A stretch of DNA of 64,000 bases, from positions 7,572,655 through 7,636,654 of the forward strand of contig NC_134033.1 in NCBI RefSeq assembly GCF_964204645.1. The letters run 5' to 3'. The DNA comes from Tubulanus polymorphus (taxonomy: Eukaryota > Animalia > Nemertea). Under the pieces are notes generated by a model. It had not been told where the DNA came from. It ran no database searches and saw only the letters and a program-made list of their open reading frames with translations. The position numbers and the translations under genes are program-made. Positions 15,733 to 53,132 of the stretch are shown in pieces; positions within the stretch are counted from its first letter, which is position 1; each line of letters begins with the position of its first letter.

Positions 15733-16219
15733 ATGGCGGAATTAAAAGAATACAGAATATTGGTTGATTCTGGAAGACTTACAAATTATAAATCTTATAA
15801 TTTACTAGTACAATTAGATAGAGAATTTAATTAGATAGTGTTGATTTAAAATTAGTTAATATAAGTTTATGTAATTCTTTTTATAATATATCGGGTAAAT
15901 CTATTGAACATAGATTGTTTATGATTTTTGATAGAAATGCCGATAAATGGTATCATATATTTATAAGACCAGGATTATATAATTTAGAAACATTAGCGCA
16001 AGAAATTAATAGAAGAGCTAGGGCAAAAATGGGCGCGGCTGCTGGATTTGTAATTAAATTTTTAAAAAGTGATATCAATAATAAAGTAAGAATAAAGTTA
16101 GATAAAGATGAACAACATAAATTTTTAGTTAAAAAACCTATGGCTAAACTGTTAGGAATTAATCTAGATAAACTTTATTCAAATGTTGACATTGCACCAA
16201 ACTTAATACCTTACACGCA
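15733..16219 (+). pseudogene. Polinton B minor capsid (penton), N-terminal part, interrupted by Polinton A
   Basis: Colinear with 35274-36029 up to NLIPYT; frameshift ~15830. Confidence 0.8.
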
Positions 16220-16289
16220 AGTCATTGGAAAAGTTGGCTTTCAGATCAGAGGACGAGATGACGAGACACCACTCATCACCACAAGTAAT
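16220..16289 (+). repeat. Left TIR of Polinton A
   Basis: AGTCATTGGAAAAG...CCACAAGTAAT, complementary to 46694-46763. Confidence 0.93.
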
Positions 16290-16304
16290 TTTTTTCCCTA
16301 ATAA

Positions 16305-29919: not shown

Positions 29920-30336
29920 TACAGAAGCGATAAGGGGCCTCGAGATGTCGCGTTCCAACTCGACAAGTCGCCATATTTATGTCGACATACCGCGATATAT
30001 CGCGTCAAGTCGACATGAATATGTCGATATATCGTGACGTTTTGACGACATATTTCGTTTTCTCGACCATTTTCCTCGCGACAAGTCGACATATTCATGA
30101 CGACTTGAAACTCAGTCGTCATATTACTAGCGTCCTCATCTTACATTTAGACATGTCTTCAAATGACAGCTTGTCCCGTGGAAAATGAGCAAAAAAAGCG
30201 AGATTTGTTGTGAAAACGTCACGATATGTAGACATATTCATGTGGACTTGACGCGATATATCGCGATATATCGACATAAATATGGTGACTTGTCGAGTTT
30301 GAACGCGACAACTCGAGGCCCTTTATCGCTTCCGTA
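29920..30336. mobile_element. MITE-like foldback element; partial extra copy at ~29655-29822
   Basis: TIRs TAC(A/G)GAAGCGATAA(G/A)GGGCCTCGAG... of over 100 bp; flanks CTATATG/CTATATC. Confidence 0.6.
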
Positions 30337-30424
30337 CTATATCAGATTAATCGACTTCAAAATAGGCGAAAGCATAAGTCTTTATTACGTTATTAATTGG
30401 CCTAATTATTCAAAAGCTAATAAA

Positions 30425-33114: not shown

Positions 33115-33281
33115 AATAATCACGCGGATATCAATAGGGTTTTCTGTGAAATAACAGAAAACCCTAATAATAAGAAACACGCGAATCTCAATAGGGTTTT
33201 CTGTGATGTAACAGAAAACCCTAATAATAAGAAACACGCGAATCTCAATAGGGTTTTCTGTGATGTAACAGAAAACCCTAA
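33115..33281. repeat. Three 57-bp units, each carrying the Helentron terminal hairpin
   Basis: CACGCG at 33121, 33178, 33235; AGGGTTTTCTG-N8-CAGAAAACCCT. Confidence 0.85.
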
Positions 33282-33446
33282 TTAATTAAACCTAAACCAA
33301 ATTGTTTTAATTTAAGGCATGTAGAAAAAGAATTAACAGAAGAAGTTAAAGATTTATTTGAAATATATAACCCAACTGACTATGTTTATGATTTATCAAC
33401 AGATGATGGAACATTCAATTCTGGGTTCCCATTAATCCAAAAAAAT
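33282..33446 (+). other. Intein C-terminal part (blocks F and G)
   Basis: Manual translation ...DYVYDLSTDDGTFNSGFPLIQKN then TDS; not shown in the ORF track. Confidence 0.92.
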
Positions 33447-33902
33447 ACTGACAGTTACATACTAAAAATCAAGACAAATGACATAACAAAAGACTTAAAA
33501 ACATTAAAACATCATTTTGATTTTAGCAATTATCCCAAAGATCATGAACTATTTAGCAATGATAATAAAAAGATTCCTGATAAATTTAAAGATGAATTAG
33601 GGGGTGATGAAATGATTGAATTTGTTGGGATAAGAAGTAAAATGTATAGTTACAGAACAAAAGATCATGAAGCTAAAAAGTTAAAAGGAATAACAAAACA
33701 TGTGGTTGATAAACATATAGAATTTCAAGATTATATAAAGTGTTTATATAAATCAATTGTAATGAAACATAAAATGAATTGTTTAAGATCAGAAGATCAC
33801 GAGATGTACATTAATGAAGTTGAAAAAACTAGTTTGAATCCATTTGATGATAAAAGGCGTATTTTAGATGATGGTATAAAAACATTACCTTATGGTTATT
33901 AA
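33447..33902 (+). pseudogene. Polinton A pPolB C-extein
   Basis: TDSYILKIK...KFKDELGG..GIRSKMY...LNPFDDKR, open frame to the stop. Confidence 0.93.
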
Positions 33903-35215
33903 AACATAAAATCAATATCATCATACTCGAAATCACTAGTGGCTTCTTCATTTTCATTTAATTGTTCTTGTATAATTTGTTTAGGTTCTTCCATTTCATT
34001 TTTCTCATTTAAATAAAGTTCTATCTTGTATCACATTTCATCTCGCTCTCTTTGTTTCTTTTTGTTTGTTAATTCGTCAAATGGAATTATAATATCGATG
34101 TTTAAATAATTTACAATCTTATTTAAAAAGAATTCATAATTAATTGAATCTGTTATTCTATTTTCCAAATGATACATTAATATTTGTTTGAATATTTTTT
34201 TTATATTTTCCATATCTTCTTCTGTTAATTTAGGTTTTTCATAATAATAAATATAAATACATTTTCTTTTGTTTTGTGTTAAATGTTGACGGAATAATTG
34301 TTTTTATAATATCTTTTTTAGTTATTTCACCATTTTTATTTTCTATTATTTTCATTTTTTCAAGCCATTGCATATATTCTGGTGTATGATCTTCTATAGA
34401 AAATATTTAAAAAATTTCATCTAGATAATTTAATTTCGGTTCTATGAGAAAATTTCTAGTTTTTTCTTCACCCCATGAATTCTTTTGCCATCCACAATCA
34501 ACACAAAATAACACAGTACCTTCTTGTCTTAAGGTCGCATAACTACATTGTGGACATTTTCGTTTATAATTTATTGGTAATAGATCTTCATTAAGCTCCT
34601 GGTATTTTCTTACGTTTTCTTTATGTTTTATTGTTCTATTATGTAGATTTGAATTACTTGTTGTAATAATCAATTTACAATATTTACAATTATATGTTTT
34701 CTTGTTAATTCATTATATTGTTTTTCTAACTTTTCAACTGTTTCTTTATTATCTGGTAACGTTTTCTCATATTTTATTTTTCCTAATAAATTATTTTTTC
34801 TTTCATTGAATTCAGTTTCAAATTTATTAGAAATTTTATCTATATGTACTTTACGAAATTGATGATTCTCCCAATCTTCTATATTTTCAGGGCTATATTT
34901 TACTCGACAAGGCTCGCAGAAATGATCTTTTATATTATCCTTATCATAGAATAAGAAAGGTCTTTTCCAAATAACTTCAGGTTCAACTTCAGCAGAATTA
35001 CTATTACTTTCATTACTATCAACATTAGCCGTTGCACCATTAATTTTACACTTCTCTGAATGTTTTTTAACATAATTTCTTGAGAATAATTTATTACATT
35101 TTGGGCAGTTTAGTTTAGGGGGTTTATAATTTTCTTCATGTTTTTTCATATGTCGAGCCATATTACTTTTTCTTAGAAGTTCATCACAAATTTCGCATGC
35201 TATCTTCTCATCCAT
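33899..35215 (-). pseudogene. Multi-zinc-finger + poxvirus A2/VLTF3-like late transcription factor, ~435 aa reconstructed
   Basis: Joins ORFs 34670-35215, 34407-34673, 34031-34213 across two frameshifts and two stops; CPQC..CVDCG ribbon, NFLIEPKLNYL, IKKIFKQILMYHLEN, INYEFFLNKI. Confidence 0.75.
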
Positions 35216-35273
35216 TTATTAGGGAAAAAAATTACTTGTGGTGATGAGTGGTAATTTTTTTATGTTATAAATA
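35212..35273. promoter_or_regulatory. Back-to-back putative promoters of the VLTF3-like gene and penton
   Basis: 41 bp identical to the sequence upstream of pPolB (CCACTCATCACCACAAGTAA-T7-CCCTAATAAATG). Confidence 0.6.
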
Positions 35274-36029
35274 ATGGTAGAATTAAAAGAATACAGAATA
35301 TTTGTTGATTCAAGAAGACTTACAAATTATAAATCACATAATTTAATAGTTCAATTAGATAGAGAATTCAAGAATGGTGTTGATTTAAAATTAGTAAATA
35401 TAAGTTTATGTAACTCATTTTACAATATATCGGATAAAAGTTTTGATCATAGATTGTTTATGATTCATGATAAAAATATGGATAAATGGTATCATCTATT
35501 TCTAAGACCAGGATTATATAATTTAGAAACATTATCTCACGAAATTAATAGAAGAGCTCGGTTAAAAGTGGGTGAATCTGTTGGGTTTAACATTAAATTT
35601 AATAAAATTGATAGTACTAATAAAATAAGAATAAAGTTAACTAATGAACAATATAAATTCATAGTAAGAAAACCATTAGCTAAAATGCTAGGAGTTAATC
35701 CAAATAAAGTTTATTCAAATGTTGATACTACGCCAAATATAATACCTTTTACGCACTTCTATATTTATTGTAATTTAATTGATCCTACAAAAACATTCGA
35801 AGCAACTAAAGATACAATTTGTAATTCTAGTATATTAAATATTTTACCATTAAAAAATGTTAAACAATTTGGAACGCAAATAAATTATAATTTAGCTGAA
35901 TGTGATTTTAAACCTTGTATTCCACATTTCAATAATTTTAAATTAGAAATAAGAAATCATAATGGTTATTTAATTGATTTGAATAACTTTCCTGTAATTT
36001 ATGAATTAGTTATAAGATGTAAAGAGTAA
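35274..36029 (+). CDS. Minor capsid protein (penton)
   Basis: 251 aa, beta-rich, N-terminal IFVDS..N..F/L and C-terminal G.LIDLNNFP pattern; Polinton context. Confidence 0.75.
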   Translation: MVELKEYRIFVDSRRLTNYKSHNLIVQLDREFKNGVDLKLVNISLCNSFYNISDKSFDHRLFMIHDKNMDKWYHLFLRPGLYNLETLSHEINRRARLKVGESVGFNIKFNKIDSTNKIRIKLTNEQYKFIVRKPLAKMLGVNPNKVYSNVDTTPNIIPFTHFYIYCNLIDPTKTFEATKDTICNSSILNILPLKNVKQFGTQINYNLAECDFKPCIPHFNNFKLEIRNHNGYLIDLNNFPVIYELVIRCKE

Positions 36030-36045
36030 TTCTTTCACTATATAA

Positions 36046-36399
36046 ATGAATATAACTGTTGGACCGAGTATATGTTTTGGATTTGATTTTAAACGTGAGA
36101 AAGAAATGAAATTTAACATTAATGATGTAATTACACATATCAAAAATATTGCATTTTCTAATGAAACAACATTTGAGTATGAAACAACAATAGACAAAGA
36201 AACTTTAAATGTAGAAAAGATTACTAATTTAATTAGAGAATCTTTAAGATTTTATGAATTAGATGAAGATTTTATCATAGATGATATTAAAAAAATAATA
36301 ATTGAAATATATACAAATGAAACTAGTAATGAAATAAATGTTGAATTAATCATAAATAAGTTAACTAAATATTTTGAAGATAGTAATTTTTTTGATTAA
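36046..36399 (+). CDS. Polinton hypothetical protein
   Basis: Intact; homolog at 47053-47367. Confidence 0.7.
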   Translation: MNITVGPSICFGFDFKREKEMKFNINDVITHIKNIAFSNETTFEYETTIDKETLNVEKITNLIRESLRFYELDEDFIIDDIKKIIIEIYTNETSNEINVELIINKLTKYFEDSNFFD

Positions 36400-36402
36400 T
36401 AA

Positions 36403-36624
36403 ATGAGTGATAATAAGTGGATAATAACTGGATTATATAATGGCGCATTACTATCAGTTGGAACTGTTGGTTATTCAATGGTATTAAAAAAAGTATTTAA
36501 AATGGGAAGTGTTAATGTTGATAGATTTGATATAAATGATATTTTAAAATTAACATTAGCAGTTACTTTATCTAATTTAACTATTGATTATTTGGAAAAA
36601 CAAAAATATATTCCTCCCATATAA
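36403..36624 (+). CDS. Small two-helix hydrophobic protein
   Basis: Two hydrophobic segments; conserved in B. Confidence 0.7.
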   Translation: MSDNKWIITGLYNGALLSVGTVGYSMVLKKVFKMGSVNVDRFDINDILKLTLAVTLSNLTIDYLEKQKYIPPI

Positions 36625-36648
36625 ATGCATAATTTTTTTGCTAAATAA

Positions 36649-37071
36649 ATGGCTTCTGCAATTATAACTATTATAGGATCGGCAATTGTTAACGCTTTAG
36701 CATTTACTGGTGGCGGTTATTTATTTAAGCATATTGATAAAAATAGTTCATTAGGAGAACAAAGAAGACATAACTTAGCATTAGAGAAATACAATAAAGC
36801 AGCGGAAGAATATAGAGAAAAACGACAAAACTATATGGATTATATTAACAAGGAATTATATGATCAGAAGATTTCACATAGAGATTTTCAATCAGTTGAT
36901 GATGCAATGAGTTTAGATAACGCAGTAACCAATAAAGAAAAATTACATAAATACAAACCTAAATTATCAGATTATTATACCCCGAGTAAAGAACAACAGA
37001 AATATGAAATAATTTGGATTTTAGGTGGAACTGTTATTGTTATATTTGTAGCATATAAATTTACTTATTAG
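36649..37071 (+). CDS. Membrane protein (N- and C-terminal hydrophobic helices, central coiled coil)
   Basis: Intact; close homolog at 47613-48035. Confidence 0.78.
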   Translation: MASAIITIIGSAIVNALAFTGGGYLFKHIDKNSSLGEQRRHNLALEKYNKAAEEYREKRQNYMDYINKELYDQKISHRDFQSVDDAMSLDNAVTNKEKLHKYKPKLSDYYTPSKEQQKYEIIWILGGTVIVIFVAYKFTY

Positions 37072-37090
37072 TAATTTTTTTTCTAAATAA

Positions 37091-37525
37091 ATGGAAGATA
37101 AAGTTGATAGTATTGATATTATTCCTCATGATATAAATAAAACTAAATTAAAAATATATTTAGAAAAACAAATATTAGAATTTGAAAGTGACTTAAAGAT
37201 AAAAAAGAAAAAATATTTAAAAAGTAAAATTATATATTATCTTATTATTAGTGGTTCGGTTACAATTAGTTCTGTAATAACATTTCTAGCAATATTCAGT
37301 CCATCAACACCTTTAGCTATATCAATTGGTGTATTAGGATTAAGTTCAAGTGTATTAACTGGTATAAGTTCAAAATTATATATAAAAAGTAATAAAGAAA
37401 AATTTAAAACTAATATCAAAGAAATTAATAAATTGAAGAATACACTAGATTATATAATAAGTTTAAATGGTCATATAACAGTTGAAGAACGAGATAAATT
37501 ATTAAAAGAATTAATAAATTATTAA
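37091..37525 (+). CDS. Two-TM protein
   Basis: IIYYLIISG...AIF and LAISIGVLGL segments; truncated homolog at 48055. Confidence 0.72.
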   Translation: MEDKVDSIDIIPHDINKTKLKIYLEKQILEFESDLKIKKKKYLKSKIIYYLIISGSVTISSVITFLAIFSPSTPLAISIGVLGLSSSVLTGISSKLYIKSNKEKFKTNIKEINKLKNTLDYIISLNGHITVEERDKLLKELINY

Positions 37526-37541
37526 TTTTTTAATTAGATAA

Positions 37542-40177
37542 ATGGTAGATAGTTTTCCAAAAGCTTTCCAATATAATAAATCAATTAAATATAATATTCC
37601 AGCAATAGATTTTAATAAATATATTACATATAGAAATGAAGTTTTAGATTCATTAACTAATTTAGAAATTTATGTTACTGAAACTAATAATTTTAATGCA
37701 AAGATGGAAAATATATTTCATGTATATTTAATTAATTCTAAGAAATTGAAAGATGAAAAACAACGGTTATTAAAATCTAATATGAAGTATTGGCAGAACC
37801 AATTAATTTTGCTGTTTATTGTGCAACAACAGGATGTGGAATTAGTTGGAATGATCATTTGAATAATTCTAAATATAAATTAATTCAAAGTTTATTTAGA
37901 TTTCATACATACTTTCAAATCAGAATATTAAATGAATTAGAGTGCGCTTTACCAGGATCTAGGTATTTTAAAGAATTAGATAATAATATTAATTTATCAA
38001 AGTTTTCTAAAATTTGTAATGAATTTAATATAGATATAAATAATTCTGATTTTAGAACAAAAATTGGAACAATAAGATCACTTCCTTGCCCTAAAAAGAT
38101 TGCAGAATATTGTGCACTTCCCATACCATCTAATAGTTTGTATAATATCTATAGTAATAAATTAGGTTATGGTAAAATAGAAACTAAGGATTTAGAAACA
38201 TTAAATTTCAATAAATTACCGACATTTTATGATAATTTAAAACAAGAAAACAATAATGGTTGGGTTTATTTCATTTTAGAAAATAATGAAGGTTTTACAA
38301 AATCAGGTATACAAAGAATAAATCAATCTATTAGAACTTATTTGATATGTATTTTAGGTGCGCAAGTTGAAACAAGATCCCCAATAATTGGAAATTTAAA
38401 TACATCATTTGATACACAGAAACAATTCAAAGTATTATTTGAAGATTCTATTCATAATGATAAAAATAGATCGATTCCAGAAAACATTGTAAGATATCAA
38501 AATTATTTAGATAAATCTCAACAACATTTGAGTATGAAACAACAATAGACAAAGAAACTTTAAATGTAGAAAAGATTACTAATTTAATTACAGAATCTTT
38601 AAGATTTTATGAATTAGATGAAGATTTTATCATAGATGATATTAAAAAAACAATAATTGAAATATATACAAATGAAACTAGTAATGAAATAAATGTTGAA
38701 TTAATCATAAATAAGTTAACTAAATATTTTGAAGATAGTAATTTTTTTGATTAATAAATGAGTGATAATAAGTGGATAATAACTGGATTATAAGATGTAA
38801 AGAGTAATTATTTCACTATATAAATGAATATAACTGTTGGGCTGAGTATATGTTTTGGGTTTGATTTTAAACATGAGAAAGAAATTAAATTTAACATTAA
38901 TGATGTAATTACACATATCAAAAATATTGCATTTTCTAATGAAACACCATTTGAGTATGAAATAACAATAGATAAAGAAACTTTAAATGTAGAAAAGATT
39001 ACTAATTTAATTAGAGAATCTTTAAGATCTTATGAATTAGATGAAGATTTTTAAAATCGATGATATTAAACAAATAATAATTGAAATATATACAAATGAA
39101 ACTAGTAATGAAATAAATGTTGAAATAATCATCACTAAGATAACTAAATATTTTGATGATAGTAAATTTTTGATAAATAGATGAGTGATAATAAGTGGAT
39201 AATAACTGGATTATATAATGGCGCATTACTATCAGTTGGAACTGTTGGTTATTCAATGGTATTAAAAAATGTATTTAAAATGGGAAGTGTTAATGTTGAT
39301 AGATTTGATATAAATGATATTTTAAAATTAACGTTAGCAGTTACTTTATCTAATTTAACTATTGATTATTTGGAAAAAACAAAAATATATTCCTCCCATA
39401 TAAATGCATAATTGTTTTGCTAAATAAATGGCTTCTGCAATTATAACTCTATTATAGGATCGGCAATTGTTAACGCTTTAGCATTTACTGGTGGCGGTTA
39501 TTTATTTAAGCATATTGATAAAAATAGTTCATTAGGAGAACAAAGAAGACATAACTTAGCATTAGAGAAATACAATAAAGCAAATAATGAAGGTTTTACA
39601 AAATCAGGTATACAAAGAATAAATCAATCTATTAGAACTTATTTGATATGTATTTTAGGTGCGCAAGTTGAAACAAGATCCCCAATAATTGGAAATTTAA
39701 ATACATCATTTGATACACAGAAACAATTCAAAGTATTATTTGAAGATTGGAAAATCATGTAATAAATCTCATGTAAGACTAAATTATTGTATAGGCCCTA
39801 ATCTATTAATCATTTCTAATGATTTAGTACTAAAGATGGGAAACATAATTGGTTACAATAATATAATTAAAACTGCAACAATAAATAATTCATTTGGATT
39901 AAATAATATAAATAAAAAGATTATTACCGCTCCAAAATTAATGGAAGGTGAAAAAAATAAAAAACACATTCAATCAACAGAAACTAAAACTAAAAATATT
40001 AAATTGCATAATGATTCTAAAATAAAAGATTACAATACATCAGAAAATATAAAAACTGATAATATTCAACATGATATAATTAAAACTGATAATGATAATA
40101 AATTCCATGAAAATACTAAATTAGCTTTAACTTGTACAGGAATTGTTATAGGAGGAATATTATATTTTAAATTTTAA
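37542..40177 (+). pseudogene. Polinton hypothetical gene with C-terminal TM, interrupted by duplicated segments at 38521-39760
   Basis: Frameshift ~37795; frame resumes at KSHVRLNYCIG via ATAAATCTCA homology. Confidence 0.65.
38521..39760 (+). repeat. Mosaic internal duplication of 36009-36802 and 38281-38447
   Basis: Degenerate second copies of the 36046, 36403 and 36649 genes. Confidence 0.85.
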
Positions 40178-40193
40178 TTTTTTTATTATATAA

Positions 40194-41652
40194 ATGGATG
40201 TAGAAGGTGGAGAAGATATTGGAATGGATCCTTTAGATGAACCTGGTATAACTGATGAACAACAACCTGATTTTAGTGAAACAAGTTTTAATGACGGTAA
40301 TGAGTCAGGATATAATAATAATTTAAATATGCCTGATTATATTAAAAATGCAGAATCACAATTAAATCCTGAAAATTTAGACCCAGATTTAGTAAAACAA
40401 GATTTAGATTAATTTAAACAAAATACCTAAATAAGAAGATTTAATTGAAAAATCTAAACTTAACATAAATGATGAAGACGTAGGACTTTTAGCAGATCAA
40501 TTAAAATTTCTAGATAATGGTAAATGTTATTATCGTTTGAAAGATGATTATTATGTTGATATCACTTATAAAAATAATAAAAATAAAATATTATCAGAAT
40601 CAACTTTAGAAAAATTAAAACCAGATAGAATTAAAAGAATAAGTAATAGTAATGAAATAACTGATGTTACACAAAAAGAAAGAGATGATAATATAGACGT
40701 ATTTAAACAAAAAATTAATGAATTATTTGAAATAATCAAAAAGAAATCAGAAGCAGAAACAACTTCTGAACAGAATATAACTTCCAAAACTAAAAAACTT
40801 AAATCAAATAAAGTTCCAATTGAAAAACTTTTACCGAATGGATTAATTGATGCAACAGATCAACAGTTAGAAGATTTAAATAACATATTTTCTGATGAAG
40901 CAATTAGAGAAATTAAAAGTATAAGACTTGCATCTGATAAAATTGCGCATGATAAAAGTATAAGAGATTTAAAAATTAGAACTTTAGAAGATGAATTATT
41001 TAAATCAAGAAAAGAATCGGAACAACTAAAATTAGATAGAGATAATAAAGTTATTGAAGAAATCGAATTTAAAAAAAGAAATGCATATTTAGAAAAAGAA
41101 ATTGATGATTTAGAATATAACATAGAATTACAAAAAGAAGAAATTAAATCATTAGTAAAATCATATGATTATAATATTAATAGATTAAAAGTTATTTTTA
41201 AAGATTTATTGATAAAACCAAATTCTGAAATATCATTGAAAGATAGAATAAAGTTATTATTTAAATTAGAAGGAATAACAATTCTTTCAATTCTAACAGC
41301 TGTAACTATATTATTTACAACAATTGGTTTAGCAATATCAAATGCTTTAAAATCTACTCCTACTCCAAATAAACCAGATAAACCCCCAGATAATAATTCT
41401 ATACAAGATAAAGTTAATGATGGTTTAAAGAAATTAGCAAAATATTTATGGGAACTATCTAAAAAATCTGCTGCAGCTTTACCCGGAGTTATTGCATCAA
41501 TTGTTGGTTTTATATTGAAATCTGCAGGAAATATTCTTAACTTTGCTGCTGAACATTATTTTATTTTTAATTACAGTTGTAAGTGCTATTATTTTTGGGC
41601 TAGTGAATATGATATCAAAAGATATCAAGTAAACATAATCAAAAATAAATGA
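40194..41652 (+). pseudogene. Acidic/coiled-coil protein with C-terminal hydrophobic helices
   Basis: ORFs 40194-40412 and 40537-41652; TAAATG start. Confidence 0.65.
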
Positions 41653-41672
41653 TAAATTTTTTTGTTAAATAA

Positions 41673-42920
41673 ATGAGTGGGAGTTATATAAGTCCTTCTA
41701 AGATTTCTAGAATATCTAATGCTATTAAAGCAGAAAGATCACATCATGTAATTACTCATAATCCTTCAAATATTAATCCCGATGAAACTTTATATGTTAG
41801 AATTCCTAGATTAACACAAAATACTTTTTATGTTCCAAATAGTATTTATTTATCAGCTGATATAAAAGTAACCGGTCATGATAATAATTATGTTGTTGAT
41901 AATGTTGGGAGATATTTGATTAAAAAATTAACTATAAAGATTGGTCCAGAAACAGTTTTCTCATTAGATGATTATAATTTATTTGCACATTATAAAGATT
42001 TATGGTTAACTAAAGAAAATAGAAATAATATGATATTTCAAGGCATCCAATCAGAAATCCATAATAAATTAAGATCAGGAGCTAATGACGCAATAGTAAC
42101 TCGTGCCACTGATAATTTGATTAAAAAGATTTATGGAAGCAAATATAAAATTCCATGAGACTTTGAATTGATAAATAATAATGCACCTTTATATAAATAT
42201 GTAATTCAAGAAGATATTATATTTGAGATAACATTTGCTCCTGTAAATGAAATTGTATTATCTAGCGTTGTTAAAGATATGGGTTATAAATTATCAAATA
42301 TATGTTTAGAATATGACACAGTAACTAATGAAAATATTGCTAGCACAATTCAAACTCAATACAATCAAGGATTTTCATTATTATATGATTATATTGATAA
42401 ATTTAAAACTGTAACTATTAATGCAAATGATGAAATAATTAATGAGAATATTAACTTCCCAAGAAGATCTATTAAAGGTATATCAATATTTTTTACCATT
42501 GCAACATATTCTAATGACGCAATAAATGTTGATAATTATTATAATCCTGAAATAACAAAAGTAGAAATAACTATCGAAGGAATAGCAAATAAAATATTTT
42601 GTCAAGGAATGAGAATGATAGATCAGTGGCCAGAAATTAGAAAACATTTTATGAATGAAAAAGTAACATCATTTGAAAATTGTAATATTAATCAAATTGA
42701 TTATTATACCGGTAATAAATATGCATTATGGTTAGATTTTAGAACAACAGAGGATAATTCATTACATGGTTCTGGAAAAAAACTACAAAACACTAAAGAT
42801 GGAATACAATTATTCATGACAAAGAATGAAGGAATCAAAAATTTCAAAATGCACATTTATATTATATCTGACGCACAATTAAATATTGTAAATTCACAAA
42901 TAGATAGTATTCAATATTAG
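41673..42920 (+). pseudogene. Major capsid protein (double jelly-roll), single in-frame stop at 42156
   Basis: ~415 codons in one frame, NPSNINPDETLYVRIP and C-terminal YIISDAQLNI; upstream of integrase and ATPase. Confidence 0.8.
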
Positions 42921-42950
42921 AAATATAAAGTTAAAATTAACGATATATAA

Positions 42951-44083
42951 ATGGGTGGTAAAAAAACTCCTAATACTAAAGAACAATATTTAAGAAATTT
43001 ATATTACAACCCTGAGAGTTCGGTTGCTTATTCTTCTACTAAAAATATATGGCGTCAAGTAAAACAAGATAAATTAGATAAGATAATCCCACAAAATTTA
43101 GTTAAATATAAAGATATAAATGAATTTATGTTAGAACAACCAACATACACAACACATAAAAAAATTGTTAGAAAATATAAAACTCGTAAAACTATGGTAA
43201 GTTATGTAGATCAACAGTGAGTGGCAAGGAGATTTAATTGATATGAAAAATGTTAAGAAAGATAATGATGATTATTGGTGGATACTGAATATAATTGATA
43301 TTTTTAGTCGTTATGTATGGAGCTTCCCACTTTATAGAAAAGATGCTGTACAAACATCAAATGTTTTAAGAAAATTTCTTTCGGATGATAAACTAAAACC
43401 AGAAAAAATACAATTCGATGATGGGAAAGAGTTTGATAATTCACTTGTTCATGAACTCTTAGATAATCATAATATTAAACATTTTTCAACAAAATCGGAT
43501 AAAAAAGCAGCAGTTGTTGAACGATTTAATAGAACATTAAGAACAAGAATGTGGAAATATTTTACAGCAAATAATACTTTTAAATGGATTGATGTTTTAC
43601 CACAATTGATAGAAGGATATAATAATTCTTATCATTCTTCTATTGGAATGAAACCTATTGATGCTAGAAAACCTGAAAATGCTGAAATTGTTTGGAATAA
43701 TTTATATGGAGCATTTCTTGTAGATTATTTTGGTCAACCTAAATTTAAAGTTGGTCAAAATGTTAGAATTTCTAAGTATAAAAAGATATTTGACAAAGGA
43801 TACGATCGAAATTTTACTAGGGAAATATATAAAATAAAAAAAGGTAATAACAACAAAACCATATGTCTATAAATTAGAAGATTTAGATGGTGAAGAAGTT
43901 GATGGCTACTTTTACGAAGAAGAATTAAGTTTAACTACTGAAAATCTAGAACAAGAATATAAAATTGAAAAAGTATTAAAAACAAAAACTATTAAAAGAA
44001 AAAAATATTCTTTAGTAAAATGGGTTGGATGGCCAGATAAATTCAATGAATGGATATTATCAAGTAAAATTAAAAATATATAA
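42951..44083 (+). pseudogene. Retroviral-type (rve) integrase with C-terminal chromodomain
   Basis: WQGDLID, QFDDGKEF, VERFNRT; YKIEKV...VKWVGWP..FNEW; frameshifts ~43220 and ~43840. Confidence 0.93.
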
Positions 44084-44692
44084 ATGAATAAGGAATTATT
44101 TATATTTGAGCCTCATAATATGTTAATTTCTGGCGTAACAAATTGTGGAAAAACTTATTTTATATTAAATTTATTAGAAACTGTTTATAAAAACTATTTT
44201 GATAATATAGTATTATTTTGTCCAACATATGAATTTAATCAAACTTATGATAGAAATATTACTAGAAATAATAAATTTATTATATTAGATCCTAAAACAG
44301 TAAAAGAAAATTTAGATAATTGTATAAAAATAGCAATTGATATTTATAAAGGATCAAATACATTATTCATTATAGATGATTGTGCTAATCTACATGATTC
44401 AAAAGTTAGAGAGAGTGAGTTATGCTATTTAGCTTTTTCTGGCAGACATTTTGGGATAACAACTTGGGTTTTAAATCAAAAATATAATTCAATTGTTAAA
44501 GACTTTAGAGAAAACATTAGATTTCTAGTTTTATTCTTCAATAAAGATAGAAAATCGATGAAAAATGCACTTGAGGAAAATGATATTATTCCACATGATT
44601 TACATAATGAATATATGGATAAGTTGAAAAATATTAAAAGATCAAAATTACTATTTAGATTACAACACCCATTTAAATATGAATTTATTTAA
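44084..44692 (+). CDS. A32/FtsK-like DNA packaging ATPase
   Basis: Walker A GVTNCGKT, Walker B FIIDD, GRH, LNQ. Confidence 0.93.
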   Translation: MNKELFIFEPHNMLISGVTNCGKTYFILNLLETVYKNYFDNIVLFCPTYEFNQTYDRNITRNNKFIILDPKTVKENLDNCIKIAIDIYKGSNTLFIIDDCANLHDSKVRESELCYLAFSGRHFGITTWVLNQKYNSIVKDFRENIRFLVLFFNKDRKSMKNALEENDIIPHDLHNEYMDKLKNIKRSKLLFRLQHPFKYEFI

Positions 44693-44694
44693 AT

Positions 44695-44970
44695 TCAATT
44701 AGCTTGTTAATCTAGTTGAATTCTATTTACATTCTAGTTGAATTCTAGTTATTGGTAGTTGTAACAAAAATCAACTAGATTTAACAATATTTTAACTAGC
44801 TTGTTTATCTAGTTTAATTCTAGTTACATTCTAGTTGAATTCTAGTTGTTAGTAGTTGAAACAAAAATCAACTAGATTTAACGAGAAATAAACAAAAACA
44901 ACAATATTTCAACTAGCTTGTTAATCTAGTTGAATGCTAGTTACATTCTAGTTGAATTCTAGTTGCAACA
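44695..44970. repeat. CTAG-rich intergenic tandem repeat (3 units of ~95-117 bp)
   Basis: CTAGTTGAATTCTAGTT units; diverged copy at 48340-48505. Confidence 0.8.
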
Positions 44971-44996
44971 TCACAACTAATTTTTTTGTTATATAA

Positions 44997-45602
44997 ATGG
45001 TAGGTGAAAAGAAAATAAAATCTAAAAATGGTGATGTTCCAATTGAAAAAACTTTAGATGATTTAGGAATAACAGAAAACAAATTAATTCCAGATAATGG
45101 TGCTTTAAATAATGTTACAACAAATAATAATTATGAATATCATCTTTATTGTAAACATCAATTAGAAATATTAATAGCATCTGGAAAATGCAAAAATTTT
45201 GTCGGTAAAAATTTAACTCATAATGAATTAGATACAATGAAATCAGATGAAATTATTAGATTATTTAAGATTTATGAAGCCGCGAGAACAGCTGTAATTA
45301 ATGACGCGATATCAGAAAATGTAGTAAAAGGTTATAGTAAATTATGTAATTATATACTACCAATTGAAGATGAAAATAGATTATATTCCGATTTAAAAAA
45401 TGATTATTTAGTTATGACTGAATTAAATAAATGGATTGGATATTTATCATTTCAATTAGGTGGATTTATGACATTATTATCAACTGGGGTTATAACATTT
45501 TCAAATAGTGAAAGTAAAAATATTTCTATAATAAATGAGCGAGGTGGAAGAAGTGAAGGAATTAACTGTGAAGAAAAAACCGAGAACTCAGAAACAAATT
45601 GA
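44997..45602 (+). CDS. Polinton hypothetical protein
   Basis: Intact 201 aa, TAAATG start, 5' end conserved in B. Confidence 0.72.
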   Translation: MVGEKKIKSKNGDVPIEKTLDDLGITENKLIPDNGALNNVTTNNNYEYHLYCKHQLEILIASGKCKNFVGKNLTHNELDTMKSDEIIRLFKIYEAARTAVINDAISENVVKGYSKLCNYILPIEDENRLYSDLKNDYLVMTELNKWIGYLSFQLGGFMTLLSTGVITFSNSESKNISIINERGGRSEGINCEEKTENSETN

Positions 45603-45870
45603 ATGGTCTCGGCAATTAGGAATTAAATCACAAGAATATAAAAAAGCTGTAAAAGAAAAAAATAAGTAATAAAAATGTTAATAAAAATGGTGAAAATATT
45701 GTTATTTCTACTCCTTCTAATGATAGAATATTTGATAAATGTTTATATTTTACAGTTGGATTTGTAATTGTATTCATTTTGATTGGGCGTAATTGGTATA
45801 AGAAATCAAATAAAATTTATGATATTAATAATTCTGAAATTCCAAACTTGACAATAAAAAAATGGATTAA
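45535..45870 (+). pseudogene. Small basic protein with TM segment, frameshifted
   Basis: MSEVEE...RTQKQIEWSRQLG then CLYFTVGFVIVFILIG in a shifted frame. Confidence 0.5.
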
Positions 45871-46057
45871 TATTTTAGAAAAAAAGCAAAAAAATAATTT
45901 TTTTTAATTAATTGAATATTAATTGAATATCACCATGTGGGTGCCATACGGCACCATCTCACTACTTTTGTCTATCTATGCGGAGCAATTAAATTGTCCA
46001 GATAAGTCATTTCGGATTCTAGATATTCATTATTTTTATTAATTTATTTTTTTAAAT

Positions 46058-46384
46058 TTAATCAACAATTTCTAAATCATGATGTCCATCTTCATTTTTT
46101 CCATGATAGATTATTTTAAATCCTTCTAAATCTTTTAATTACTCTGTACTCAATGAAACCCATTTATCAGGTAAACATACTTTAAATTCTCGCGATGTAC
46201 TAACATTACAGTAGCTTAAATTAGCTGATACTTTCTTTCCATATTTAGTTTTTATCTTTTCTAATTTCAATATTTTATGTTCAATTTCTTTTGTAACATC
46301 AACTAACTTTTTTATTTCAAATTGTTTTTTTGCTGGTTTTATTCTGTTATTTATTGTTGCTAAGAATGCTTTTCTATCTCCCAT
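46058..46384 (-). pseudogene. Polinton A homolog of the 117-aa putative SSB, premature stop at 46139
   Basis: TKYGKK...LPDKW...YHGKNEDGHHDLEI aligns with NKYGDK...LPDRF...YKGKNEKGHHEIDF. Confidence 0.7.
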
Positions 46385-46693
46385 TTATAAGAAAAACAAA
46401 TTACTTGTGGTGATGAGTGGGGATTACTTCCCCCTGTATATAACAAACACGCCATTAACCGTTCTCACCCAAGCCACACAGCATCTATTTATCTGGGGAC
46501 AGTTGACACGCAATCACTGTACTACAGTAATAGCACACGCGTTAATAACCGTTCTCAGTAGAGACTCACTGTATCGATCTATCCACGCGCAGCTGTTGTT
46601 ACGCGCACTCACTGTATATGTGTACCACAGAGCAATCGTCCGTTCTCACTAGAGCCTAGCTGTGATGAGTGGTGTCTCATACTCAATTGAATT

Positions 46694-46763
46694 ATTACTT
46701 GTGGTGATGAGTGGTGTCTCGTCCTCTCGTCCTCTAATCTGAAAGCCCACTTTTCCAATTACT
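46694..46763 (-). repeat. Right TIR of Polinton A
   Basis: Ends ...TTTTCCAATTACT followed by TSD CACGCA. Confidence 0.93.
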
Positions 46764-47036
46764 CACGCATTTTTATATTTATTGCAATTTAATTGATCCT
46801 ACAAAAACATTCGAAGCAACTAAAGATATAACTTGTAATTCTGGTTTACTAAACATTTTACCATTGAAGAATGTTAAAGAATTTGGAACGCAAATAAATT
46901 ATAATTTAGCCGAGTGTGATTTCAAACCGTGCATTCCTCGTTTTAATAATTTTAGATTAGAAATTAGAAATCACAATGGATACTTTATTGATTTTTCCCT
47001 GTAATTTGTGAATTAGTTATAAGATGTAGAGAGTAA
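46764..47036 (+). pseudogene. Polinton B penton, C-terminal part
   Basis: THFYIYCNLIDP... continues the frame broken at 16219. Confidence 0.85.
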
Positions 47037-47052
47037 TTTTTTCACTATATAA

Positions 47053-47367
47053 ATGAATATAACTGTTGGCCCGAGTATATGTTTTGGGTTTGATTTTAAA
47101 CATGGTAAAGAAATAAGAATTAAACTAAATGATGTAATTACTGATATAAAAAGTAAATCATTTAACAATGCATCAATGATTAATAAAGAAAATTATAATA
47201 TAGAAAAAGTAATTGATTTAATCAAAACGCCTTTAGAATATTATGAATTAAATGATGATGGAATTATTGATGATATTAAAAACATAAGTAGTAATGAAAT
47301 AAATGTTGAAATAATCATCACTAAGATAACTAAATATATTGAAGATGGTAATTTTTTTGATAAATAA
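47053..47367 (+). CDS. Polinton B homolog of 36046-36399
   Basis: MNITVGPSICFGFDFK shared. Confidence 0.7.
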   Translation: MNITVGPSICFGFDFKHGKEIRIKLNDVITDIKSKSFNNASMINKENYNIEKVIDLIKTPLEYYELNDDGIIDDIKNISSNEINVEIIITKITKYIEDGNFFDK

Positions 47368-47588
47368 ATGAGTGATAATAAGTGGATAATAACTGGTTTA
47401 TATAATGGAGCCTTACTATCAGTTGGAACTGTTGGTTATTCAATGGTATTAAAAAAGTATTTAAAATGGGAAGTGTTAATGTTGATAGATTTGATATAAA
47501 TGATATCTTAAAATTAACATTAGCAGTTACTTTATCTAATTTAACTGTTGATTATTTAGAAAAACAAAAATATATTCCTCCCATATAA
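47368..47588 (+). pseudogene. Polinton B homolog of 36403-36624
   Basis: 1-nt deletion in A-run ~47455. Confidence 0.7.
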
Positions 47589-47612
47589 ATGCGTAATTAT
47601 TTTACTAAATAA

Positions 47613-48035
47613 ATGGCTTCTGCAGTTATAACTATTATAGGATCGGCAATTGTTAACGCTTTAGCATTTACTGGTGGTGGTTATTTATTTAAGCATATTG
47701 ATAAAAATGGATCATTAACAGAACAAAAAAGACATAACTTAGCATTAGAGAAATATAATAAAGCAACAGAAGAATATAGAGAAAAGAGACAAAACTATAT
47801 GGATTATATTAACAAGGAATTATATGATCAGAAGATTTCACATAGAGATTTTCAATCAGTTGATGATGCAATGAGTTTATATAACGTGGTAACCAATAAA
47901 GAAAAATTACATCTATACAAACCTAATTTATCAGATTATTATACCCCAAGTAATGAACAGAAGAAATATGAAATAATATGGATTTTAGGCGGAACTGTTA
48001 TTGTTATATTTGTTGCTTATAAGTTTACTAATTAG
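47613..48035 (+). CDS. Polinton B homolog of 36649-37071
   Basis: Intact 140 aa. Confidence 0.78.
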   Translation: MASAVITIIGSAIVNALAFTGGGYLFKHIDKNGSLTEQKRHNLALEKYNKATEEYREKRQNYMDYINKELYDQKISHRDFQSVDDAMSLYNVVTNKEKLHLYKPNLSDYYTPSNEQKKYEIIWILGGTVIVIFVAYKFTN

Positions 48036-48054
48036 TAATTTTTTTGCTAAATAA

Positions 48055-48220
48055 ATGGATGATAATATTGATATTATTCCTCATGATATAAATAAAACTA
48101 AATTAAAGATATTTCTAGAAAAACAAATATTAGAATTTGAAAATGACTTAAAAATTAAAAAGAAAAAATATTTAAAAAGTAAAATTACATATTATTTGAT
48201 TATAAGTGGTTCGGTTATCA
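48055..48220 (+). pseudogene. Truncated Polinton B two-TM gene at inversion breakpoint
   Basis: Matches the 5' part of 37091. Confidence 0.7.
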
Positions 48221-48502
48221 TCTAGTGTTAATTTTGTTTCTGTTATACCTAAATCATCCAAAGTTTTTTCAATTGTAACATCACTATTTTTAGATTTTAT
48301 TTTCTTTTCACCTCCCATTCATATAACAAAAAAATTGTGTTGTTGCAACTAGAATTTAACTAGAAGGTAACTAAAAATATAGTAGGTTTACAAGCTAGTT
48401 GAAATATTGTTGTTTTTATTAATTTTTTTGTTTCAACTACCAATACCTAAAATTTAACTAGAATGTAACTAAAAATATACAAGATTAACAAGCTAGTTGA
48501 AT

Positions 48503-49001
48503 CTAAATAAATTCATATTTAAATGGGTGTTGTAATCGAAATAGTAATTTTATTATTTTTCAATTTATCCATATATTCATAATGTAAAGCATGTGGAAGT
48601 ATATCATTATCAAGTGCATTTTTCATTGATTTTCCAGAGAAAGCTAAATAGCATAACTCACTTTCTCTAACTTTTGAATCATGTAGATTAGCACAATCAT
48701 CTATGATAAATAATGTATTTGATCCTTTATAAATATCAGTTGCTATTTTAATACAATTATCCAAATTTTCTTTAACTCTTTTAGGATCTAATACAATAAA
48801 TTTATTATTGCTAGTAATATATCATAAGTTTGATTAAATTCATACGTTGGACAAAATGATACTATATTATCAAAATAGTTTTTATAAACATTTAGTAATA
48901 AATTTAATATAAAATAAGCTTTCCACAATTTGTTACACCAGAAATTAACATATTAGAACATTATTGAACATAGGTTCAATTATAAATAATTCCTTATTCA
49001 T
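48503..49001 (-). pseudogene. Polinton B packaging ATPase, internally deleted
   Basis: FIIDDCANLHD; GRH region missing; frameshifts. Confidence 0.88.
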
Positions 49002-50114
49002 TTATATATTTTTAATTTTACTCGATAATATCCATTCATTGAATTCATCTGGCCATCCAACCCATTTTACTAAAGAATATTTTTTTCTATTAACAGTTTT
49101 TGCTTTTGATACTTTTTCAATTTTATATTCTTGTTCTAGATTTTCAGTAGTTAAACTTAATTCTTCGTCATAAAAGTACCCATCAACTTCTTCACCATCT
49201 AAATCTTCTAATTTATAGACATAGGGTTTTGTTGTTATTACCTTTTTTATTTTATTTATTTCTCCAGTAAAATTACGATGCATCCTTTGTCAAATATCTT
49301 TTTATACTTAGAAATTCTAACATTTTGACCAACTTTAAATTTAGGTTCACCAAAATCATCTACAAGAAATGCTCCATATAAATTATTCCAAACAATTTCA
49401 GCATTTTCAGGTTTTCTAGCATCGATAGGTTTCATTCCAATAGAAGAATGATAAGAATTATTATAACCTTCTATCAATTTTGGTAAAACATCAATCCATT
49501 TAAAAGTATTATTTGCTGTAAAATATTTCCACATTCTTGTTCTTAATGTTCTATTAAATCGTTCAACAACTGCTGCTTTTTTATCCGATTTTGTTGAAAA
49601 ATATTTAATATCATGATAATACAAGAGTTCATGAACGGATGAATTATCAAATTCTTTTCCATTATCGAATTGTATTTTTTCTGGCTTTATTTTACCACCT
49701 GAAAGAAATTGTCTTAAAACATTTGATGTTTGTACAGCATCTTTTCTATAAAGTGGGAAGCTCCATACATAACTACTAAAAATATAAATTATGTTTAAGA
49801 TCCACCAATAATCATCATTTTCCTTCTTAACATTTTTCATATCAATTAAATCTCCTTGCCACTGTTGATCTACATAACTTACCATAGTTAACAACCAACA
49901 ATTTTTTTATGTGTTGTATATGTTGGTTGTTCTAACATAAATTCATTTATATCTTTATATTTAACTAAATTTTGTGGGATTATCTTATCTAATTTATCTT
50001 GTTTTACTTGCCGCCATATATTTTTAGCAGAAGAATAAGCAACCGAACTATCAGCGTTGTGATATAAATTTCTTAAATATTGTTCTTTAGTATTAGGGTT
50101 TTGTTTACCCCCAT
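49002..50114 (-). pseudogene. Polinton B integrase with chromodomain
   Basis: ORFs 49256-49894 and 49002-49283. Confidence 0.92.
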
Positions 50115-50144
50115 TTATATTTTGTTAATTTTAACTTTTTATTT

Positions 50145-51270
50145 CTAATATTGAATACTATCTAATTGAGAATTTATAATATTTAATTGCGCGTCAGATA
50201 TAATATAAATGTGCATTTTGAAATTTTTGTCTCCTTTTTTCTTTTTCATGAATAATTGTATTCCATCTTTAGTGTTCTGTAATTTCTTCCCAGAACCATG
50301 TAATGAATTAACCTCTTTTGATCTAAAATCTAACCATAATGCATATTTAGTGCCGGTATAATAATCAATTTGATTAATATTACAATTTTCAGATGATTTT
50401 ACTTTTTCATTCATAAAATGTTTTCTAATTTCTGGCCACTGATCTATCATTCTCATTCCTTGACAAAATATTTTATTTGCTATTCCTTCAATAGTTATTT
50501 CTACCTTTGATATTTCGGGATTAAAATAATTATCAACATTTATTACACCATTAGAATATGTTGCAATGGTAAAAAATATTAATATACCTTAAATAGATCT
50601 TCTTGGGAAGTTAATAATTGTCAATAATTATTTCATCATTTGCATTAATAGTTTCAGTTTTAAATTTATCAATATAATCATATAATAATGAAAATCCTTG
50701 ATTGTATTGAGTTCGAATTATGCTTGAAATATTTTCATCAGTTACTGTATCATATTCTAAACATATATTCGATAATTTATAACCCATATCTTTAACAACG
50801 CTAGATAATACAATTTCATTAACAGGAGCAAATGTTATCTCGAATATTATATCTTCTTGAATTGCGTTTATATAAAGGTGCATTATCATTTATCAATTCA
50901 AAGTCAAATGGAATCTTCTATTTGCTTCCATAAATCTTTTTTATCAAATTATCTTTAGTATTAGTTATTATTGCATTATTAGCTTTATGATCTTAATTTA
51001 TTATGGTTTTCTGATTGGATGCCCTGAAATATCATATTATTTCTATTTTCTATTTCTATTTTCTTTGTTAACCATAAATCTTTATAATGCATAAATAAAT
51101 TATAATCATGTAATGAGAAAACTGTTTCTGGTCCAATCTTTATAGTTAATTTTTTAATCAAATATCTCCCAACATTATCTACAACATAATTATTATCATT
51201 ACCAGTTACATTTATATCAGCTGATAAATAAATACTATTTGGAACATAAAAAGTATTTTGATTTAATCTC
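50145..51270 (-). pseudogene. Polinton B major capsid protein, 5'-truncated
   Basis: Closely similar to 41810-42920, with frameshifts. Confidence 0.82.
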
Positions 51271-51274
51271 TATA

Positions 51275-51572
51275 AATCTGACTTGTTCCTTATTGGGAGA
51301 TGAATTCTCAATAAGTAACGAAAATTGAACCGGTAAAGACGAAAATCTGATTAAGGAACAAGGAACAAGTAACATGTTACTTGTTCCTTGTTGGGAGATA
51401 AATTCTCAATAAGTAACGAAAATTGAACCGGTAAAGACGAAAATCTGAATAAGGAACAAGTAACATGTTACTTATTCCTTGTTGGGAGATGAATTCTCAA
51501 TAAGTAACAAGAAAATCTGAATAAGGAACAAGTAACATGTTACTTGTTCCTTATTGGGAGATGAATTCCCAA
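51275..51572. repeat. Short tandem repeat with palindromic core
   Basis: AAGGAACAAGTAACATGTTACTTGTTCCTT x3; perfect 36-bp palindrome at 51520-51555. Confidence 0.85.
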
Positions 51573-51593: not shown

Positions 51594-53132
51594 ATGACAG
51601 TACCAAAACTTGAGCTAATGGCTGCGACCATCGCGTCACGTTTATGCCATCACGTACAATCGTCAATTAAAGCTGCCATAAATGCCGATCTTGATACATA
51701 TTTATGGAGTGACAGTATGATTGTTTTGGGTTGGTTGAAATCGGACAAAGTCTTACCTTTATTTGTTGCAAATAGAGTGAAGGAAATCAAAACATTGACA
51801 CAGGCACGTCTAATGGAATTATTGTCCTACGGCTGAAAATTCTGCAGATTTATTAACACGTGGGTTGACAGCGGAATAATAAAATTCCAGTAATTGGCTT
51901 CAAGGTCCTGAACTGATCACTGATGAAAAAATGAGACCTGATTTTCAAGTAAATTGCAGTGCATCATTTGTCAACACTTGCGATATCAGTTCTGAACCTA
52001 TAAATGTCACATCCTTTCATGCTCCAGAACTATTAATCGAGAAGGTTGTAGATATAGATAGATTTTCCTCTTATCAAACTTTGTTGAACGTTTCAGCTTT
52101 AGTCGTACGCTTTGTTAGAAACTGTAGGTCTCAAAAGATCGCACGAGTTTTCGGAGATTTGAAAACCGAAGAGATCAATGATGTAGAATCAATATGGTTG
52201 AAAAAGTGCCAAGAAAAGGAATTTTCTGATATATTTCTATTCCTTTCTGGCAAATTAAAGAAACGTCCGTCCATAGCATCTCAGTTAAATTTGTTCTTAG
52301 ATGAACGAGGTATAATCAGGTGTAGAGGACGAATGCATCATTCAAAATTACACTATGAATGTAAACATCCAATTCTATTTATTACCAAAATGTTGCGAAT
52401 TATCCAGTTTGATAATTAGAGAAGCTCCCATTGACGTTTATCATTTCGGTATTGCATCAACCATTTGCAAGATCCGAGAACGAGTCTGGATACCGCAAAT
52501 TCGTCAAACGGTCAAATCGTACTTACGAAAATGTATCGTATGCAAGAAATTTTGTTGTAAGCCGTTCAAACTGCCAGATGCGCCTCCTTTACCTGCTGCC
52601 AGAATCAACGAGGCTCCTCCATTCTATAACTGTGGAGTAGACTATTGCGGTCCTCTGTTTGTACGTGATAATTCGAAATACTACATATATCTTTTCACGT
52701 GCTCAGTAACGAGAGCCGTGCATTTGGAGATTGTCAAGTCGAACTCGGCTGAGGATTTTATGTATGCTTTTCGCAAGGTCGTGGCCCGACGCTCCGTGCC
52801 AAGGAGGATCCTCTCCGATAATGCGTCTAACTTTGTTGCAATTTCCAAATTTATTTCCAAGTATCTCTCAGAGAAAAGAATTGAGTGGAAGTTCATTACG
52901 AAGCGAGCTCCTTGGCACGGAGGGTTTTGGGAAAGATTAGTTGGACTTACCTAGGCTGCACTTAAAAAGGTTATAGGCAAAGGTATTCTTTCGTACGACG
53001 AGTTGATTACAGTTGTGACCGAAGTTGAATGTACACTAAACAATCGTACGTTATTGTATGTATCGTCTGATCTTTATGATGGTGTAACCTTAACCCCATC
53101 TCACTTATTGTGTGGCAGGAGAATTGTGTCTA
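51594..53132 (+). mobile_element. BEL/Pao LTR retrotransposon pol fragment (RNase H-like region, integrase), decayed
   Basis: TVPKLELMAA, WSDSMIVLGW, FVANRV, GVDYCGP, SDNASNF, PWHGGFWERLV. Confidence 0.93.

Follow-up and report, generated by a model that had tools for sequence, protein, structure and literature searches.

The window analysed here is a satellite-rich stretch of 64,000 nucleotides (~38% GC) from the nemertean Tubulanus polymorphus (contig NC_134033.1), which contains three AT-rich islands (22-25% GC) that are decayed and rearranged copies, called A, B and C below, of one Polinton-like element. Copy A occupies 33300..46420 (limits approximate) at 23.5% GC, a partial copy B lies at 46720..51300, and copy C carries a gene for a DNA polymerase B of the protein-primed kind (pPolB). 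The Polinton gene set of pPolB, rve integrase, A32 ATPase and double jelly-roll capsid is present, and in one metagenomic relative (L143) all of it lies on one contig. Copy A retains, on the plus strand, a C-terminal pPolB remnant (33282..33902) which by reading resembles the pPolB pieces at 14655-15332, a probable penton or minor capsid gene (35274..36029), a double jelly-roll major capsid gene in two open reading frames (ORFs; 41673..42920; 73% to the capsid protein of relative L121), an rve integrase with a chromodomain, in pieces (42951..44080), and an A32-like packaging ATPase as an intact ORF (44084..44692; Pox_A32, E 2.5e-13). The model of the L121 capsid is a double jelly roll that matches the capsids of Paramecium bursaria chlorella virus 1 and iridovirus (E about 1e-15), and is nearest to capsids of nucleocytoplasmic large DNA viruses at only 8-16% identity. 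For the penton candidate, the nearest clusters hold Preplasmiviricota/Nucleocytoviricota proteins and Sputnik V18/19 (0.97), as a lead only.

One short signal, TAAATG over the start codon preceded by a T-rich core, stands before the capsid gene as it does before the genes for polymerase, integrase and accessory proteins. At 13 of the 14 gene starts of copy A positions -3..-1 read TAA, against 30 of the 508 remaining ATGs (Fisher p 2e-14), bearing out the initial annotation, which had placed a poxvirus-type late promoter architecture before almost every gene and had proposed a comparison with internal ATGs as its check. The fourteenth start, that of the penton gene, has TAAATA three bases upstream of the ATG and reads T7-N6-TAAATA-ATG as described, so that TAAAT(G/A), a feature of poxvirus late promoters, is found at all 14. 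The longer ATAA is found at 13/14 gene starts and 16/508 other ATGs, and the combination T5+ N5-7 TAAATG at 8/14 starts, at 0/508 other ATGs and at 0/30 other TAAATG sites. All 14 ATAAATG sites that had been listed exist, with the numbers marking the A of the ATG and the heptamer beginning 4 nt earlier; two of them, 35215 and 46384, are minus-strand sites, and 16305 is part of copy C. The start positions in copy A agree with the protein N-termini of L121. Across the whole window, 14/14 T5+N5-7-TAAATG sites open an ORF, one of them an 11-codon broken duplicate, and a pattern derived from the sites gave 16 matches against 0.07 in shuffles, a post hoc figure in which the shuffle includes the GC-richer flanks and several matches are duplicates. 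The pattern was said to be retained in copy B, where we found TAAATG at 6/7 homologous starts and TGAATG at the seventh.

A promoter-like signal of the form TAA-T7-N6-TAAATG is seen on the minus strand at 35213..35234, head to head with the penton gene, whose own signal (T7-N6-TAAATA, with the ATG 3 nt on) lies at 35252..35276 (+). Further signals on the plus strand precede a 117-aa ORF (36027..36048, its 5' TAA being the upstream stop), a 73-aa hydrophobic ORF (36384..36405), a 140-aa ORF (36630..36651), a SLATT-like 144-aa ORF (37072..37093), a broken gene of a conserved 400-aa family (37523..37544), a broken coiled-coil/membrane gene (40175..40196), the major capsid gene (T7-GTTAAA-TAAATG, 41654..41675) and a conserved 200-aa gene (T7-GTTATA-TAAATG, 44978..44999), and one on the minus strand precedes an inward-pointing right-end gene (46382..46403). 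An A-rich core replaces the T-run at 42951 (integrase; signal 42932..42953), at 44084 (ATPase; 44065..44086) and at 45535 (signal 45515..45537, inside the upstream ORF), all on the plus strand; this group of ATPase, integrase and some accessory genes loosely resembles vaccinia intermediate promoters, in small numbers. The run of six or seven T with a 6-nt spacer, as first described, is true of the AT-rich subclade of the window, and family-wide the core is shorter, T-rich and at -15..-12. In copy C, pPolB has its signal at 16286..16307 (+), with an inverted duplicate at 10320-10341. The promoters at 16305 and 35215 are not independent, because they are identical copies adjoining a shared 17-nt repeat. 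This repeat (35235..35251, minus strand; also before 16305, 10322 and 46384, and at 46714) is the only repeat seen at the rearranged ends, and may be a terminal-repeat remnant. Its occurrences at 16269, 10358, 35251, 46420 and 46714 lie directly 5' of the signals of three different genes, and possibly it was a terminal repeat that supplied a promoter at each end.

To follow the signal through the family, relatives were gathered with an ATPase profile (at least 597 pattern matches); out of 163 metagenome loci that were confirmed, we used the best 80 (ATPase identity 35-82%). A start in a relative was counted only where its N-terminus agrees with a homolog in another locus, and the controls were all other ATGs together with spurious ORF starts, because TAA cannot precede in-frame internal ATGs. 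Loci with at least 60% of starts behind TAA were classed as TAA-type (43 loci), 25 had none and 12 were mixed; non-TAA starts in the mixed loci are by reading mostly inner methionines of broken copies, with real exceptions in L126, L158, L173 and L200. Since this class split is circular, a leave-one-out test was used, and it showed the signal to be all-or-none per element: TAA stood at 129/154 starts when the other genes of the locus were mostly TAA and at 15/84 when they were not. The background among the relatives' non-start ATGs is 198/4964. Single loci at 33-38% GC are rich in TAA starts (L143 11/11, L149 9/9, L147 8/8), and the signal is kept in relatives with 41-50% ATPase identity and at 33-45% GC, where it stands at 88/90 starts of the loci in the TAA-type class. 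The T-core, which played no part in classing the loci, is present as well: T is found at -14/-13/-12 in 87/69/73% of 157 TAAATG starts, with the T peak at -15..-12, G and C almost vanish at -15..-13, and TTT falls within -17..-11 at 99/157 TAAATG starts against 37/184 non-start TAAATG. Chance arising from AT-richness, suggested by the 23.5% GC of copy A, is refuted by the low background in copy A and in the relatives, by retention of the signal at 33-45% GC, and by the AT-rich locus L137 (20% GC), where TAAATG precedes 0/4 starts; we see practically no room for it.

A signal lying against the start codon might instead serve translation or compaction, as an in-frame stop, a stop-start coupling device, a polyadenylation signal or an early terminator. 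Some counts lean this way: AATAAA/ATTAAA overlaps the ATG in 73/164 starts of TAA-type loci, TAA is the upstream stop in 15/164, and in three genes of copy A the stop of the gene upstream falls at -19..-17. Most counts argue otherwise, and we regard such a role as quite improbable. In copy A the TAA is the upstream stop in 0/13 starts (at one start it directly follows that stop, as a second TAA). Of the two outcomes that were to refute the initial annotation, equal frequency at internal ATGs and full explanation by stop-start overlap, neither was found. In the relatives TAA is present whatever the neighbouring gene does, at 59/61 head-to-head starts (many of which are the same two gene pairs recurring in related loci), 55/59 starts after a tandem gap, 13/13 in tandem overlap, 15/15 where this TAA is itself the upstream stop and 15/16 with no close neighbour. 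TAG and TGA occur at -3..-1 in only 1/164 and 0/164 starts, yet 47/135 true stops are TAG or TGA (in loci chosen as TAA-rich), and spurious short ORFs have TAA at 65/1352, TAG at 35 and TGA at 32. The T-runs had also been proposed to fit TTTTTNT terminators; this was not borne out, as TTTTTNT is found in only 22/164 promoter regions of the relatives, head-to-head starts included, and its depletion on coding strands (0.52) is like that of other T-rich words (0.51-0.65; 0.96 in other loci). YAG occurs in only 35/164, so that the signal is not a splice acceptor. Taken together, the neighbour, TAG/TGA, TTTTTNT, AATAAA and YAG counts leave the signal unexplained by stop-start coupling, by termination, by polyadenylation or by splicing. 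Back-to-back integrase and ATPase genes share palindromic two-way starts (L132:1427, L133:1017 and L130:1585) of the forms CAT-TTAA-ATG, seen in L132 and L133, and CAT-TTATAA-ATG. The genes for the ATPase and the 400-aa protein run head to head in L143, L147, L149 and their relatives with an overlap of 13-43 nt, each TAAATG lying inside the other gene. At the level of sequence, the promoter reading is supported by the fixed two-part spacing, by independence from the upstream gene, and by conservation in distant relatives up to 45% GC.

The 25 loci without TAAATG have a second form. TATA lies within 16 nt of 55/79 starts and of 335/2859 other ATGs, at a variable distance of 3-16 nt that again speaks against a role in translation, and at ~50% GC it is found at 12/16 starts against 29/636 other ATGs. 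A T-rich core lies ~11-15 nt before the TATA at 27/55 starts and 49/335 others. TATA also occurs in the same span at 40/164 TAA-type starts, partly as TATAAATG. Both forms are interleaved on the ATPase tree (66 rows), and a single clade for the TAAATG type was rejected (p-AU, approximately unbiased test, 2e-44; 33 rows, 21 TAAATG and 12 others, chosen after the first tree had been seen), with the caveat that mosaicism can mislead a tree built from one gene. These data show that the predicted promoter signal was swapped, element-wide, for T-core plus TATA in other lineages.

Both forms have counterparts among large DNA viruses. Vaccinia late promoters have TAAAT, usually followed by G, over the start codon, with a conserved T 10 nt before it (PMC11980589) and a core-to-TAAAT spacer of 5-7 nt (PMC5294985); in the intermediate complex TAAA is recognised directly by the polymerase of the virus (PMC12917281), and salmon gill poxvirus genes were annotated with TAAATG (PMC4542343). 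The likeness to the vaccinia late consensus that had been noted is upheld: the conserved T corresponds to -13 here and is present at 12/14 copy A genes and at 69% in the relatives. A T-rich core, a spacer and TAAAT(G/A) over the start codon are thus common to the window element and to vaccinia late and intermediate promoters, the A-rich-core subclass resembling the intermediate ones. On the other hand, ours are predicted promoters in an integrating element of the 15-20 kb class, they precede all genes including the DNA polymerase, the window's clade has an extra conserved TAA at -19..-17, and no RNA polymerase was found among the scanned ORFs of the window and relatives, which include no whole element. 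For the second form, the p72 late promoter of African swine fever virus (ASFV) needs TATTT at -15..-11 and TATATA at -1..+5, in late genes of ASFV the initiator is TATA and the leaders are short (PMC7458399), and pacmanvirus late promoters are similar to those of ASFV (PMC11788076). It is the non-TAAATG relatives, and not the window element, that share the T-rich core and TATA initiator of ASFV and pacmanvirus (also PMC5294985, section 7). Both forms thus fit the late promoters of sister virus orders to within ~1 base.

From the DNA letters and these comparisons, our best explanation, to which we give close to an even chance, is that T-core plus TAAATG is a late-type viral promoter before each gene, that a poxvirus-like helper supplies the RNA polymerase which reads it, and that the element is virophage-like. 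An outside polymerase would be the simplest reader, because the polymerase, the integrase and the factor-like gene described below all stand behind the signal. One late-type motif of a large virus (the helper motif being taken from the published consensus) before most genes is itself a virophage-like trait. That no RNA polymerase turned up among the scanned ORFs counts in its favour too. Two general points speak for it as well: in eukaryotes a T at -3 gives the start codon a poor context, and a TATA box so near the ATG would place the start site inside the gene. The initiator would overlap the start codon, with transcription beginning within AAA, and slippage might then add a poly(A) leader replacing the T at -3, as in vaccinia and the yeast linear plasmids (PMC6211774). 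An integrated copy may be largely inactive as long as its cell is not infected by a matching helper, and every exchange of initiator could record a change of helper, pox-like or asfarvirus-like. We liken the outside polymerase to that of mavirus-like elements, whose promoter motifs are specific to their type and which answer only to the giant virus that matches: Cafeteria roenbergensis virus (CroV) reactivates no type but the one that carries the late motif of CroV (PMC8547959, PMC10945749). Mavirus-like elements have in common with ours an integrated small DNA virus with pPolB, rve integrase and one late motif across genes; they differ in having a protist host, a virophage-type capsid and protease, a TCTA motif and a known, tested helper, where our element has a probable animal host.

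Several points weigh against a poxvirus-like helper. None was identified, the comparison with vaccinia rests on published consensus text rather than poxvirus DNA, the loci are kin, so that their independence is overstated by the p values, and short AT-rich words may arise by convergence. T at -13 precedes the conserved 400-aa gene in 0/20 cases outside the window's clade, where its upstream DNA is mostly part of the ATPase gene. Yeast linear plasmids have TAAAN initiators with their own polymerase (PMC6211774), core genes were transcribed in about half of 49 coral polintoviruses, which may or may not be of this family, with no helper reported (PMC11131425), and the Polinton-like viruses (PLVs) known with entomopoxviruses have a gene set of protease, L2 mu and lipase, with no rve (PMC11296320). 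The element's own weak VLTF3-like gene, considered next, counts on the same side.

The zinc-finger ORF at 34670..35215 (minus strand) is likely the 5' piece of this gene, whose downstream parts are probably a piece (34407..34709, -) that has both a CxxC..CxxC zinc ribbon and a zinc finger of U1 type, and a broken-gene piece with a weak Pox_VLTF3 match (34031..34303, -; E 2.5e-4, 21.2 bits, profile 82-155/168), if our joining is right. The gene, itself behind the TAAATG signal at 35215, is broken near 34.7, 34.4 and 34.3 kb. A separate weak match is found in L140, a TATA-type locus (E 6e-4, 19.9 bits), and both fall below the curated cut-off of 25 for Pox_VLTF3 (PF04947); the window piece is the best non-self match of the L140 candidate among 2927 segments (E 0.22). 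VLTF3 is also found in other small viruses and in large viruses without RNA polymerase. The weak gene and this distribution favour a rival reading, in which the promoter is of viral type but needs no helper, and host RNA polymerase II, guided by a VLTF3-like factor of the element itself, reads it in the nucleus. We hold this to be rather unlikely; if true, it would be a case of a 15-20 kb element directing the polymerase of its host to promoters of poxvirus type. Reports of VLTF3 exist for Mriyaviruses and PLVs, and for a subgroup of coral polintoviruses, which are expressed (PMC11131425), and the chromodomain of the integrase implies a nuclear phase. At the same time, the factor gene and pPolB stand behind the same signal, with no signal-free gene class seen for first expression; a 0-2 nt leader would need slippage for translation; coding strands show no avoidance of AATAAA (65 against 58.5 expected, 4.5 per kb, a weak test that has no host-gene control); and the VLTF3-like gene is found in only 3/81 sequences (the window, L140 and L141, which is a near-copy of L140), most loci being short. 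Under the poxvirus-like helper, the VLTF3-like gene may work together with the late machinery of the helper or oppose it. A zinc-ribbon ORF in L142 (L142:4141-4746; no Pfam match, homolog piece in L186) is possibly another factor.

The helper could also be another large DNA virus, no relative of poxviruses, in which TAAATG was reached independently, and the setting allows for it: the best named relatives of the retroelement flanking the copies are marine invertebrates, from which no poxvirus is known to be described; a search for one had none among its listed entries. TAAAT/AAAAT motifs have moreover been reported in iridoviruses (PMC5294985). We consider this unlikely, because the distance to the T-core is within 1 nt of vaccinia and the second form is within ~1 nt of the sister order Asfuvirales.

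Returning to a poxvirus-like helper, parts of the idea are already known, namely the poxvirus late promoter type, the virophage strategy and the presence of PLVs with entomopoxviruses (PMC11296320). That study found PLVs in entomopoxvirus occlusion bodies and proposed them as parasites of animal poxviruses; it is a precedent for our best explanation, small Polinton-like viruses with a proposed tie to poxviruses being common to both cases, with gene sets that are unlike, and its main text has 0 occurrences of "promoter", "motif" or "TAAAT". A search by title and start of abstract, with subscription papers and most supplements outside it, found no report of TAAAT promoters in polintons or virophages. 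Animal Polintons with PLV-like capsids (Nematostella type; 10.64898/2026.06.19.733378, 10.64898/2026.10.13.758929, PMC10120064) have pPolB and rve integrase in common with our element and, compared by description, a SLATT-like gene; their capsid is outside the Maverick groups, as ours may be. Octocoral, hydrozoan and bivalve ATPases near Aquintoviricetes belong here too, and a search of passages from the three papers did not find the word "promoter". The yeast linear plasmids pGKL1/2 are pPolB elements with a TAAAN initiator that leads to poly(A) leaders (PMC6211774), like the window element in the first two respects, and differ in having their own RNA polymerase and capping enzyme and an early-type upstream element.

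The means by which Polintons of animals are expressed, with or without a helper, are an open question, and in protists promoter sharing is the main sequence clue to virophage-helper pairs. Here promoter sharing is seen in a family of probable animal host, in two forms matching two sister virus orders, and the signal offers a handle for finding helpers. A wider claim, which we put forward tentatively and would sooner doubt than assert, is that a widespread animal Polinton-like family consists of virophages of poxvirus-like and asfarvirus-like viruses, with repeated helper switches made by rewriting every promoter between TAAATG and TATA. If true, the promoters would record yet-unfound large DNA viruses of invertebrates and might point to a virophage-type antiviral defence in animals.

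As to where the family is found, queries with the ATPase, capsid, integrase and VLTF3-like proteins gave no members in IMG/VR or GTDB, and a strict motif scan of viral contigs gave at least 120 single-match stretches, none of which, among the matches listed, had TAAATG at most starts. The only named homologs of the ATPase and capsid are proteins labelled Bartonella sp. (P0054, P0074, P0250) on short contigs, likely eukaryotic host carry-over in bacterial assemblies. The conserved 400-aa protein was considered as a hidden polymerase or factor: its model (pLDDT, predicted local distance difference test, 60; best Z 3.7) gave no Foldseek match at E <0.001 and no atlas match, a known fold being still possible. 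The conserved 200-aa family had no clear PDB match, searches of NCBIfam and PHROGs gave no matches, and no adenovirus-type cysteine protease was seen among the scanned ORFs of the 11-12 kb contigs, which are not whole genomes.

Other features of the copies and their surroundings were noted. The SLATT-like gene (37091-37525) encodes two membrane helices, is kept in the family with a weak Pfam match, and possibly has an antiviral or exit role. Accessory genes for a deoxynucleoside kinase, Bro-N and VRR-NUC (L121:10340-10981, L198:638-1465 and L198:160-609) are of kinds frequent in large DNA viruses, the kinase standing behind a full T-run signal. The sole long intergenic gap of copy A, between the ATPase and the next gene (44700-44975), holds short imperfect CTAG-rich repeats that are found in copy B too. 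The pPolB region of copy C is a long inverted duplication (6105-11099 and 15528-20532, 99-100%) around a more diverged pPolB copy, its arms running on into flanking satellite, and the C-terminal part of pPolB there contains an intein-like segment (19715-20560, +; 6047-6841, -; Intein_splicing, E 0.004). On the host side, a flanking BEL/Pao-like retroelement remnant lies at 51594..52954 (+), with named relatives in Mytilus and Tubulanus at 49-54%, and arrays of 31-bp and 155-bp satellites flank the elements at 1-6000 and 20600-33300.

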